Shown here: positions 24,301 through 33,300 of the stretch, piece by piece
Layout of the letters: each line of letters opens with the position of its first letter
Numbering within the stretch: the first letter of the stretch is position 1
Assembly (NCBI GenBank): GCA_020137815.1
Contig: CM035353.1
Coordinates: forward strand, 2,666,001-2,730,000
From: Hormiphora californensis
Taxonomy: Eukaryota; Animalia; Ctenophora
Direction: 5' to 3'
Length of the DNA stretch: 64,000 nt
Notes under the pieces: model-generated
What the model was told of the DNA's origin: nothing
Database searches by the model: none
What the model saw: only the letters and a program-made list of their open reading frames with translations
Made by a program: the position numbers and the translations under genes

Positions 24301-27300
24301 CATTTAGCTGTACATTGACAGCTTTCTCCGCTAGCTTGGACAGAACACTGAGATTCGAGACTGGTCTGTAGTTCGCAAGAGAGTCAACATCTCCAGATGT
24401 ATTCTTGATCGTGGGCCTCACAATAGCCTCTTTCAGTCCTGACGGGAATACACCACTCTGCAGAGAAGTGTTTACGATCTTGGTAAGCATTGGTAGTAGT
24501 GTAGGGAGAAGTTGCTTCAGCAGAGAGGTCGGGATTGGGTCCAAGTCACAGAACTTGTCCGGCAGGCTCTTCACAAGGCTTGCCACTTCATCTTCAGTCA
24601 TAAGACTGAACGTCTCAAATCTTTCTGTCTCTCCTTCAATAGCACCGGACTCAGTTGATTTCTTATCACCCAACTCTTCAATCTTGACACCAATCTTCTT
24701 CTGTAGTTTATCAATCTTGGACTTGAAAAACTCTCCAAACTCAGTCGCTAGTTTCTCCGGGTTGACCACATCTGGGAGGATAACATTGGAGTTACCCAGT
24801 AGCTTGCTCAGTTGTTGGTTGAGCCTCTTTTGATCGCGTCCACAGAGTTCGATATTTCTTCTGGTGTATTCTGATCGTTTTCTGACCTCCATCTTGTTGA
24901 AAGCTGACCTTAGTTCCACATACATGGCCCTTAGCTGCGGCTTCTCTTTAGTCTTGTCCTTTCTCCACTTCCTCTCAGCACGCCGCTTCTTCCTCCGGAG
25001 GGTTAGCAGCTCTTCATCCATCCATGGTGTATACTTCTCTTTCTTCCTTCTCTTCTTCATTGGACAGTGCTTATCAACCAGGGCTAGCAACGTTCCATAT
25101 AACTTCTCAACAAGGCTATTAACATCCTCTTCCTCAGCAAGTGAGGTAAACAGTCCACTGGCTTTGAGATCCTCATTAAAACTCTCCACATCCACCTTCG
25201 AAAAGTCCCGATACCAAATAGTCTCCGGCCGTTTCCTCTTACTAATCCTCGTAGTCAGTTGTAGGTCCACTGTAATAAGATGGTGGTCTGAAGTAGTTCC
25301 CTCCTCTAAGACCCTAACTGGTTCAAGACAATCTGCTACAGTAGCATCCATCAGGGCTAGGTCCAGAGTACCTCCATGTCTGTGGGTTGAAACCAATGGA
25401 ACCATCTGTTTGAAGTCAAACTCCTCGATCATCTCCTGTAGTTTTTTTGGATAAAATTCATCAGGCCTTTCCATGTGAAAGTTGAAGTCTCCCATGATTA
25501 ATGGTGTCCCGACTTTACAGTTTAGTTCCTCAAGATATCCCTTGAATTCATCCAGGAAGTGGCTCTGGGTATGAGGTGCCTTCTTCGAGTACGGTGGCCT
25601 ATAGATGTTTACTAGCCGGTACATCTCACTAGCATTTCCAACAGTAGTCTCTGTACACTCAAAGGTCTTGAAACACTTGGTAGGTCCAGATTTAACACCC
25701 AGGTCCGCTCTGTATACCACTGCTACTCCACCACCAATCCTCTGCTTCCTCGGTGCCGAGTGTATTTCCCATCCTCTTTCCTTTATCTCATGATGTTTAG
25801 CATTGTCACCTTTCCTCAGGTAGGTCTCTTGAAGAAGACAAATATCAACAAGCTGGTCCTCAAGGTGTTCCAGTACACCAGCAGTCTTATTGACAAGGGA
25901 GTTGCAGTTCAATGTTCCAACTCTTAGTGAGTTCTCCTTCTTTCCAAGAAGTCTCGTGCCTTCCGACTGTACTCGTTTTTTAACATCTCAGCTCCGGCTG
26001 TTCTACTCATCAATCTCTCCTTCTCCATGATAAAGAAGGGACACTGGAAACTGTTCGCTGTGTGGGTGGTTGCATTGAGCTGATCGATCTTGCTTCGGCT
26101 ACTCTTGCAGTTTGCACAGCATCTGGAGTCAACTTTTCTATCTTTCTTCACTTGACAATCTTTGTACCGATGATTTCCAGCACAGTAGGTACAAACTGGA
26201 TCACCGCTGTCTCTCCTGGGGCACATCACTGAGTCTGACTTGTGACCATAGCGTTGACACTTGAAACATTGAACGATATGGAATCGATCCTTCACAATGT
26301 GGATTTGAAAATCAAGGTTAATTCGGTCATTCCTTTTGCGAACAATCTCCCGTATCTTTTTTGACATCTGGACAACTGCATATCGATCCTCCTTATGAAG
26401 AAAGATGACTTTCAGTTCCTCTTGGTGACTTTCAACCTGCTCTTTGATTTCCTCATTCTTCCTCAGTATTTCACTGTATACTTCCTCAGCAGTGGTAATT
26501 TCTCCAGCAATGTCTGAGATTGTGACTTTGGGATTAAGCTTCTTGGTGGTCAGAGTGGCTGTTGACGTATCAAATTCAGATTTCAGCAGTTCCTCAGCTT
26601 TGTCTCGTTGAGACTTGTCCTTGAAAACTAGATTGGTGTCCTCTTCATTCGAGCTGGTTCCATCAACTGGGATTGACTGCAGAGTCTTTCGTACCTTCGC
26701 CTTTACAACTTTCCACTTTTCCAGTCCAACTTTCTCAAGTTTGAGGGTGTGCTTCTGTGGTGTCTTCTTAGGGCTGGGGTTGAGCAACTTTCCAGCATCA
26801 TCAGTCTTCTCCTTGCCGTTTATCGCCTTCTGTATCATGTCTGGTATGTTTGCAAAACACTCCCGCATCGCCTCAAGCTCCTTGAGAACCTGTTCAGACC
26901 TATCCTGTCCCACTACTGTTCCTTCTTCTGACTTGGTCTTCACACGGTCATCCTGCTGCTTGTCCACCATTCTCAATAGGTTAATAGCAAAATTCCATAG
27001 AATATCTTTAGTGATACCCGCTGGGGGAGCTTTTTTACCTTGCAAGATTGGGTCCATATCCACAGGTAGATTATCTTTCATAAACGTGTCCAACTCTTTC
27101 CTCGTCCATAACTTTAGCGGGATTGCCTTCAATGTCATCACTAGCTACGATCTGCAGGATAAATTCAAGGCCTCGCCTAACGACAACGAGTGTCAATCCT
27201 CCGGGTAAGATCCGGTCTTCTCTTGTCTTTGGCCTTGTCTTTCTCACACAGAAACTGTTACCAGTCTCTGATAAACCCAGAAAAGACAAAACAGAAAAGT

Positions 27301-30300: not shown

Positions 30301-33300
30301 TCCTCATTTGTAGATAGTTGGCGAACCAATCCAAGACAGAACCCCTCACTCCAAACCGTTCTTCAAGAACTTCTAGCAGCTTTCCATGGTCCACTGTGTC
30401 AAAAGCGGCGCTCATATCTAATAGAAAGAGGCCTGCGACCTTTCCTTCATCCATATCCCGAAGGAGATCATCAAACATACCCATCAGTAGGGTTTCACAG
30501 CTATGATTCACCCTGTAACCTGATTGATGCTTATTTAGTAACTCGTTCTCATTAAGATACGAGTTGAGCTGCTCTAGAACTATCTTTTCAAGAAGCTTGG
30601 AGACAAAAGATAGGTTGGAGACTGGCCGATAATTGGTCAAAGTGTCCTTATCGCCATAAGGGTTCTTAATCGTTGGAAACACCAAAGCTTGCTGGAGAAG
30701 TTCAGGAACACTGGAACATCCAAGAGATAGGTTAATAAACCTGCACAAGACTGGAGCTAGCTCATGCATACACCCCTTCACTAACCAAGTCGGTATAGGG
30801 TCAAGATCACATGTCTTGTCTGGCATGTCTTTGATTATCCTCTTTAGTTTCTCTGGGGAAACTTCCTCAAATTCCTCAAAACAACAGACGGGTGTCTGAT
30901 GAATAGGGTTCCTCTTAGTCCTCAGATTCTTCTCTCCAATAACAGTAGACCGGATCTTATCAACTTTTCCAACAAAGAAGTCCGCAAAGTCATCCGCTAA
31001 CCTCCGCTTATCTGTGGTTTCAGGCATAAAGGTCTCAGTATTACCAAGTAGACGGTTCAATTTCCTTTGAAGTGCTTTGGGGTCATCTCTGGACTCCTCC
31101 AAGTCTTCCTTGACGTAGTTCGTCCTCGCTTCCTTGTCAACACGCCCAAACTGCCTCTTGAGTTCATTGAACTGCTTCTTCGTGACGCTGGTTTTATTGT
31201 TCTCCCAGGCTCGCTCAGCATTCCGCCGCTGACGAAGAACTTGACGCACCTCTGGATTATCTCTCCATGGCCTCAGCTTAGCTCCTCTCTTCTTTCTCCT
31301 CTTCAACGGGACAGTTCTATCCACAAGTTCCTCAAGTTTCCTCATATAAATACACAAAACCTCCTCAGCTGATCCAGATTCCATCGCTTCACTCCAATCC
31401 ACACTCCTAAAAGCACATCGAAGTATTTCAATATCAACAGCCTTGAAATCTCTGTACATGTCCACTTTTTCACGAGTCTTGTATTCACTTGCTACAGTTT
31501 CAATACACAGCTCCGCCAATACAAGAAAATGATCAGAGGTCGTTCCGTCAGGAAATACTTCAACTGATTGAACCTTAGAATATCTGTCTTTTTGGCAGAG
31601 AAGCAGATCCAAAGTACCACCACGAACATGAGTAGGTTGTAGTGGGACCCGCTGATCAAATCCAAGAGAGTCAAGTAGTCCAAGCAACTTCTTCGCATAG
31701 AAGTTCTGAGTGTCTTGAACCTGGAAGTTAAAGTCCCCCATCAGGATAGGGTTCCCCGTTTTGCAGACCAACTCTGACAAATAATCAGTAAACTCATCCA
31801 AGAACTGGGCTTCCGTAAACCGTGCCTTGCCAGTATACGGAGGTCTATAGATATTGCACAGCCTCGTCACATCTTTTCCTCCTCCAATAAGGGCTTCCTG
31901 GACTTGAAACGATTTAAACTTGGCTTTTACCGGAGTGTATTTCAACTTGACACCATCCCTGTACAAGATTCCAATTCCACCTCCTGAACGTTCCGCTCTA
32001 GGCGAGGAGAAGATATTCCAGCCATAGTCTCTGATCTCCTGAAGTTTAGCTGTGTCACTCTGTTTCAGATAAGTCTCCTGTACCAAGCAGATGTCACATC
32101 CTTTTTCCTCCAAGTGTGTAATTACACCTGACGTCTTATTCATAACTGAGTGGACGTTTAGTGTGCCAATCCTCCAAGACGTTTTCCTCTCAGATCCTCC
32201 CATGCCCTCGTCAGGTACACGTTTTTTTCCTGCTTCGTTACTCCACTGGTACTCTCCATGAGTCTTCCTTTAGCATTTACATAGAATGGACACATACTGC
32301 TGGAGGCTGGGTGACTTTGAGCATGGCGCTTGTCCTCTCTGCTTCCTCCATGATCACAGTTGACACATTTCATCCTGCTAACTACATTTTCCTTCTTGGC
32401 ATGGCAACTCCTAGTGTCATGATCTCCCGTACAGAAGGCACAAACCGGAGATTTATCCTTGTTTGGGCAGTAGATGGATCCTGCTACATGGCCAAAGCGC
32501 TGGCAGTGAAAACACTGCGTGACATAAAACCTGTTCCTCACTGAATGCTGTCGAAGTTTCAAGAATAGCTTGTCCTTCCTTTCTGATATCGCCTTCCTCA
32601 CTTCTGGAGAGACCTGGAACACTGCATATCTTCCTGTTCTGTTTACATGGACCACCTTCACCAGGTGACCCTCCCCAACTAGTCTCTTCACAGACTCATT
32701 CTTATCACTGACAATCTCTGACAGAAGGCGATCTTTTTCCAGCAGGTCTTGGTCAAGATCATTGATCATGATGCGAGGATCTCTTTTCTTCTCCTTCTCC
32801 ACTACGGGAGAAACATCAAGGAACGGTGAAAGAACTTCTTTCGCCTGTTCCAACTGTTCATCGGTCTCAAACATAAGATTTGTCCTCCTCTTGGTGACTG
32901 AAAGATCTAGGACTGGAATCTTATTCAATGCTTTCTCCACCTTTGTCTTCACGACAGTAGTCCACTTCTTCTCACACATAGGTCCTTCCTCACCTTTATC
33001 CTTGATAGTCAGATACCTCTTAATTGGAGTCACAGGGGTCACAGTTTCCTGTGCTGAGCCAGTGCGATTCACAGCATGAATTGCCAATTGGTCACTGCCA
33101 GGAGCTAAGATCTTGCTAACCTTGGGGGCAACCAGATCCGGTAGTGTGCTCAGAAGATCCTCTTTCAGCTTATCCAGTGTATCTCTCAAGTCTTCAGCTG
33201 TGAATGATGTCACAGATTCAGATGAGTGGGTAGAGATGCGTCGTGTTTCTGGTAACAATCCATATAGTTCCTTGACCATCGTCCATAAAACCGCTTTGGA

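Follow-up and report, generated by a model that had tools for sequence, protein, structure and literature searches.

A conserved A_AAA_AAC heptamer at the ORF1/ORF2 junction of two LINEs of Hormiphora californensis, a candidate site of −1 ribosomal frameshifting

Mouse mammary tumor virus (MMTV) itself uses the slippery heptamer A_AAA_AAC. The same heptamer lies at the junction of open reading frames 1 and 2 (ORF1 and ORF2) in two long interspersed nuclear elements (LINEs), called LINE A and LINE B here, in a 64,000-nt stretch of DNA from the ctenophore Hormiphora californensis (the window). How ORF2 of LINEs is translated has been called an open question (PMC3894237, in part), and the studied cases point to reinitiation. 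The TRE5-A and TRE3-A elements of Dictyostelium are stated to need a −1 shift for the translation of ORF2 (PMC5911963, in part); the parts of PMC5006619 consulted do not repeat this statement. For the non-long-terminal-repeat (non-LTR) groups 1–3 of Paramecium, a +1 frameshift, reinitiation or read-through was suggested from sequence alone (PMC5405496, in part). The consulted portion of PMC7175516 holds nothing on LINE frameshifts, and the terms frameshift, slippery and ctenophore are all missing from PMC13343379. We found no literature on a slippery site in this clade, with most subscription papers and the Repbase reports outside the search.

The junction resembles the MMTV gag-pro type in having an X_XXY_YYZ heptamer in the zero frame (5/5 junctions) of a Gag-like ORF with zinc knuckles, and a −1 frame that leads into an enzyme ORF. 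It differs in that the element is non-LTR, has no protease domain that Pfam recognizes in ORF2, and shows no detectable 3′ stem or pseudoknot; as this stimulator was not found, we did not file the junction as an MMTV-type cassette. The Dictyostelium elements are likewise non-LTR elements with an apurinic/apyrimidinic-type endonuclease (APE), with a stated −1 frameshift, for which neither a heptamer nor an experiment is given in that text, but differ in host and ORF1. For the Paramecium groups, too, recoding at the ORF1/ORF2 junction is a suggestion made from sequence, but they form a separate clade, and the routes proposed there do not include a −1 shift. SART1 and L1 also have a two-ORF RNA and a low output of the ORF2 protein (ORF2p), whereas the elements studied here have no overlapping stop-start, their ORFs share 61–115 nt, and a fusion is what we predict as the product. 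Type I ORF1 is found in L2 subgroups 2, 8 and 10 and in CR1 subgroup 3 of the Jockey superfamily (PMC4120745, in part); the words ‘frameshift’ and ‘Mnemiopsis’ each occur 0 times in that paper. The likeness to this type lies in three knuckles at the end of ORF1 and an ORF2 with APE and reverse transcriptase (RT), and in a relative from Mnemiopsis a PHD-like Cys/His cluster can be read by eye at the N-terminus. The junction would be a variant of known recoding in a class of elements whose route to ORF2p is unsettled.

Heptamer and reading frames at the junction

The ORF1 frame reads TTA AAA AAC in LINE A and GAA AAA AAC in LINE B, and ORF2 lies in the −1 frame in both. The initial annotation had placed the heptamer at the homologous position of both LINEs. 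When read on the minus strand the two sites do align, although A and B are only 35% identical in the ORF1 protein (ORF1p) and 44% in ORF2p. A_AAA_AAC occurs exactly once in each ORF1. LINE B has a second in-frame heptamer, C_CCA_AAC at 32467, and this one precedes the stop at 32269 after which the ORF2 frame is open. The two ORFs overlap by 61 nt in LINE A and by 109 nt in LINE B, with the ORF1 stop left out of the count. The ORF2 frame of LINE A opens after a TGA two codons 5′ of the heptamer, and no ATG precedes the GTLN motif of the endonuclease, as had been read before. The GTLN and QE motifs follow the heptamer by 21 and 50 codons, respectively.

A metagenome scan that covered 26 of 64 parts gave at least 80 loci, at least three of which belong to this clade (L001, L002 and L003). 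Junctions with DNA thus number five. The heptamer is A_AAA_AAC in L001 and L003 and A_AAA_AAU in L002, in each case 22 codons past the last knuckle Cys, and the −1 frame runs open from it into ORF2 in all three. The pattern A_AAA_AAY is therefore present in 5/5 junctions, with TTA, GAA, GAA, ACA and TCA (four residues) as the codon before Lys. The Lys codon at the junction is always AAA (5/5), though AAA makes up 31% of the Lys codons in these ORF1s, and none of the nine other Lys-Asn pairs in the same five ORF1s is slippery. The product of the codon frequencies for the 5/5 pattern is 8.5e-6 if the elements are independent, which kin are not. Between the heptamer and GTLN, the −1 frame is open over 20–24 codons in 5/5 elements; elsewhere in ORF1, 3–24% of 20-codon windows are open. 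This frame opens only two codons before the heptamer in 3/5 elements. From the heptamer it stays open into ORF2 for 997–1075 codons in four elements and to the contig end in L002.

Distant LINE loci served as a control. An ORF2 match was present in 46 of 79, and 27 of these 46 overlap in the −1 frame, with frame assignments only approximate in broken copies. A heptamer from which the frame runs on into ORF2 was found in 0/46. Since the overlap is frequent in distant loci that lack such a heptamer, the overlap alone means little, and the heptamer is specific to this clade. The 33 distant loci without an ORF2 match include one LINE-like locus (L071, approximately 1078–1170) in which an in-frame A_AAU_UUC precedes 213 codons that are open in the −1 frame, and two (L048 and L049) that run off the contig. 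Viral contigs gave no relative, and genome contigs gave two distant loci only.

Footprint of the heptamer in ORF1 proteins

A profile search listed 150 ORF1 representatives at 50% identity. Dropping 20 with an incomplete third knuckle and tail left 130. The motif x-Lys-Asn is found 18–28 residues after the last knuckle Cys in 103 of the 130 (chance approximately 0.11 per protein). In a slippery site the codon before Lys must end in A, which excludes Asp, Asn, His, Tyr, Phe, Cys, Met and Trp at this position. None of these residues precedes Lys-Asn at the site (0/103), as against 107/451 elsewhere, and they occupy the two positions upstream in 30/103 and 35/103 proteins. The residue before Lys has 10 identities at the site. 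As kin are not independent, we made a tree of 115 proteins, 92 of them with Lys-Asn, using only the sequence that precedes the motif. The residue before Lys changes at least 32 times on this tree and never into the excluded set (about 2e-4 by hand arithmetic). ORF1 ends at the Asn itself in 12 proteins and within three residues of it in 35. Relatives that encode Lys-Asn with non-slippery codons, a possibility raised by the initial annotation, were not found among the five DNA junctions, and the footprint holds in 103 of 130 distant ORF1s. The conserved heptamer is a real and strongly conserved feature.

The 27 ORF1s that were scored without Lys-Asn include truncated tails and groups that read x-K-K, D-F-L or D-P-F. 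One of these three sequences stands at about the same place in P0130, P0239, P0140, P0157, P0169, P0223, P0141, P0143 and P0152. Such groups could carry other slippery heptamers.

Favoured route to the ORF2 protein and its alternatives

We consider it probable (about 0.75), as judged from sequence comparison, that a low-level −1 frameshift at A_AAA_AAC gives an ORF1–ORF2 fusion of approximately 1,400 residues. A leader-capped RNA with both ORFs would be scanned to the ORF1 AUG, and most ribosomes would complete ORF1p. A few would slip back by one base at Lys-Asn and read the linker of 20–24 codons into the endonuclease. The predicted fusion measures 1,395 aa for A and 1,406 aa for B. Because no stimulator was found, the rate of slipping is expected to be low. 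It would probably be the low basal rate of the heptamer, or be set by a signal that escapes detection, and a low rate would fit an element that needs much ORF1p and little ORF2p. A_AAA_AAC ranks with the heptamers at which mammalian ribosomes shift most readily, and some frameshift stimulators are linear or depend on trans-acting factors (PMC5009743, in part). We infer from the latter that a missing hairpin lowers the expected rate but does not exclude the slip.

A number of observations weigh against this reading. The hairpin or pseudoknot that the initial annotation had in mind was not found downstream by folding or by stem search. No local hairpin was seen, with folding z of +0.46 to −0.89 in 6/6 windows, and the best stems or pseudoknots 3–12 nt downstream were matched by 12–52 of 60 control places in 5/5 elements. 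Pairing with the element tail was not found either (the last 40 nt rank 63rd–254th of 311–372 windows, 4/4). These were simple folding and stem searches, which a weak or protein-bound signal could escape. The DNA junctions are few (five), and the −1 overlap by itself is common in the distant loci. Over a fifth of the ORF1s (27/130) were scored without Lys-Asn, one of them (P0160) being mis-anchored. Ser accounts for 58 of the 103 residues before Lys, so selection at the protein level may contribute to the footprint. An AUG in the ORF2 frame is present at +8 in B (32203, good context), which the initial annotation did not mention, and at −6 in L001. Among 85 ORF2 homologues, six are called from a B-type Met, two from −15 and nine from −1 to −3 relative to GTLN (codons unverified). 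The retrovirus-style fusion proposed at the outset is supported by the conserved heptamer and the open −1 frame; a stimulator was not found, and the AUG of the B subfamily could provide a second route to ORF2p. As to tail pairing, the best windows of the 3′ region rank 18th, 2nd, 16th and 1st, but they fall at unrelated places and form ragged duplexes, and do not support it.

The likeliest alternative, which we still hold to be unlikely, is that ORF2p is made separately by termination-reinitiation or by AUG-independent initiation, with Lys-Asn conserved as a motif of the ORF1 protein. It is the route that has been studied in LINEs: SART1 reinitiates at UAAUG (PMC3894237 and PMC2699510, both in part), and L1 is AUG-independent (PMC5009743, in part). 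The start-stop arrangement of B, AUG-40 nt-UAA, is inside the 26–61 nt spacer class (PMC2699510, in part). Such spacer-type reinitiation, of the pneumovirus M2 class, would have an ORF2 AUG to use in B and in L001, where it is upstream of the heptamer, but none in A, L002 or L003. In these three elements no ORF2-frame AUG precedes GTLN. Counted from the heptamer, their first ORF2 Met is at +119 (A), +28 (L002) and +114 codons (L003), in all cases past GTLN (+20 to +24). No near-cognate start codon is common to the five junctions. An ORF1 stop that overlaps an ORF2-frame AUG (UAAUG or AUGA) is seen in 0/5; the TAA ATG of L001 and L002 sits in the ORF1 frame. Gene models of the ORF2 homologues speak on both sides. 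In most (66/85) the called start does not precede GTLN, or the N-terminus is unrelated, and two, called from −26, read KKR across the site, as the heptamer predicts. Starts 1–15 residues before GTLN (17/85) agree with reinitiation, and those at −3 fall where the ORF1 stop of A lies, where the two codons may overlap as AUGA. Since gene callers also translate GTG and TTG starts as Met, a called Met may hide either codon, and the 19 upstream starts are unverified; they keep reinitiation alive for some subfamilies. Tyr at the second position after the Asn (36/84) is a sign of conservation at the protein level nearby. What reinitiation leaves unexplained is the choice of codons (5/5 against 0/9) and the ban on residues that have no codon ending in A. 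Nor does it account for a linker that stays open in the −1 frame before the ORF1 stop is reached.

Slippage of RNA polymerase, which would add an A in the run of six or seven and put the fused frame into a minority of transcripts, is very improbable in our estimate. All five sites are such runs, the same fusion protein would result, and transcriptional slippage does yield trans-frame products in potyviruses (PMC5009743, in part). But a polymerase needs no fixed phase, yet the x-Lys-Asn phase is kept in the five DNA junctions and in the 103 proteins of the footprint, and an added A would be copied into new insertions too. Among the rows listed, from contigs of four runs each in which rare variants are dropped (for B, 40 of 179 rows), there was no indel at either junction and no variant in either heptamer, a result to which we give no weight. 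We give slightly less credit still to splicing, either of a short in-frame intron or of the spliced leader onto an acceptor inside the element. The host trans-splices, and the leader starts 4/5 elements. In two gene models from Mnemiopsis, ORF2 is joined on directly past the SKN of ORF1, but they differ in the joint, and both lose GTLN. LINE A, LINE B and L001 have in-frame GT..AG pairs of approximately 50 nt, as read by hand; introns so defined would be rich in purines, and in L002 and L003 the pairs are out of phase. An intron would need neither an open −1 frame nor a heptamer, and an internally trans-spliced ORF2 RNA would still be without an AUG in 3/5 elements. Chance, with Lys-Asn conserved for the protein and A-rich codons simply common, is the least credible of the explanations. 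Short A-runs are indeed common, and words of the heptamer type turn up six and four times in the two ORF2 frames when all phases are counted. Against it stand the share of AAA among Lys codons (31%), the other Lys-Asn pairs, none of them slippery, the excluded-residue counts and the tree.

A broader version of the frameshift reading is tentative, and we put it at somewhat less than even. It holds that in a clade of at least 100 families the endonuclease-RT is translated solely as an extension of ORF1p, in the manner of Gag-Pol, through a slip on leader-capped RNA that no RNA structure assists, and that sub-lineages without Lys-Asn use other slippery heptamers. Among 7,687 candidates of 952–2,715 aa there was no naturally fused ORF1–ORF2 protein, which is weak evidence. 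If frameshifting is right, the ORF2p of these LINEs is a fusion protein whose start is placed too far downstream, within the endonuclease, by present gene calls, and selection could maintain a heptamer alone as a sufficient signal for recoding. If the fusion is clade-wide, a covalent bond would hold ORF2p to the protein that packages the RNA, and cis preference would follow from the way the protein is made. The conservation of the heptamer across about a hundred diverged families makes the retrovirus-style answer directly testable.

Elements, spliced leader and neighboring features

LINE A and LINE B look like diverged, full-length APE-type LINEs (Table 1). Both ORF2s match PF03372, PF14529 and PF00078 of Pfam (APE endonuclease and RT). 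Pfam gave only endonuclease and RT, with no protease domain in either ORF2, and it gave no match for either ORF1, including an RRM upstream of the knuckles. The Cys/His columns of the three ORF1 knuckles are invariant in 57/57 aligned ORF1s. The ESM Atlas returned only unnamed or zf-CCHC clusters. One of the 10 ORF1 clusters checked has named members, and Mnemiopsis leidyi is the only named source. By their ORF2 motifs the two LINEs may be L2-like.

Table 1. Features of LINE A and LINE B in window-based coordinates
Feature	Coordinates	Strand	Remarks
LINE A ORF1	25924..27138	−	404 aa; three Cys/His knuckles near C-terminus
LINE A slippery heptamer A_AAA_AAC	25975..25981	−	Leu-Lys-Asn in ORF1; Lys-Lys-Arg in −1 frame
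LINE A ORF2 frame, stop to stop	22952..25987	−	APE endonuclease and RT; GTLN at 25918; first Met 25624
LINE A (GTT)6 tail, likely 3′ end	22605..22622	−	
LINE A 5′ end	27353..27392	−	40 nt identical to 3′ part of ctenophore spliced leader (PMC8527503, in part)
LINE B ORF1	32158..33447	−	429 aa
LINE B slippery heptamer A_AAA_AAC	32221..32227	−	Glu-Lys-Asn in ORF1
LINE B ORF2-frame ATG	32201..32203	−	40 nt before ORF1 stop; possible second ORF2p route in B subfamily
LINE B ORF2 frame, stop to stop	29228..32269	−	APE and RT; GTLN at 32167
LINE B (ATT)6 tail, likely 3′ end	28820..28837	−	
LINE B 5′ end	33635..33673	−	39 nt identical to 3′ part of ctenophore spliced leader (PMC8527503, in part)

The leader motif of 39–40 nt has two occurrences in the window, one per LINE, each at the element start. 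Its sequence is that of the 3′ portion of the published H. californensis spliced leader (PMC8527503, in part). In A and B it is approximately 190–215 nt upstream of the ORF1 ATG. The leader begins 4/5 elements, namely A, B, L001 (approximately 41–79) and L002 (approximately 103–142); L003 has only a similar stretch. This position suggests that trans-spliced RNA was the likely template of these elements, and such copying would account for some of the numerous leader copies described from ctenophore genomes. The last two bases of the leader are AG, and it could serve as a new acceptor.

Arrays of a 10-bp T-rich repeat are found at 22062–22269, 22524–22617, 27371–27485 and 33665–33738, and LINEs A and B lie inside or adjoin them. 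Target preference, or nesting in one repeat element, is possible. A near-perfect palindrome (27512–28789) in the interval from the B tail to the start of LINE A resembles a foldback element, with 554-nt arms (99%), 76-nt outer arms and internal 163-nt repeats. A tandem 55-nt unit, with six copies in register, is present upstream of LINE B (34101–34526). The window holds a third LINE at 55945–60468 (minus strand), in which the ORFs do not overlap and are separated by a spacer of approximately 260 nt with an AG repeat. A 2A-like SNPGP motif at 58923, directly before its endonuclease, resembles a motif in PMC3894237 (seen in part; resemblance only). An open frame of 799 codons at 40156–42555 (minus strand) has a PHD-like Cys/His cluster and no Pfam match, and is probably an exon of a host gene.

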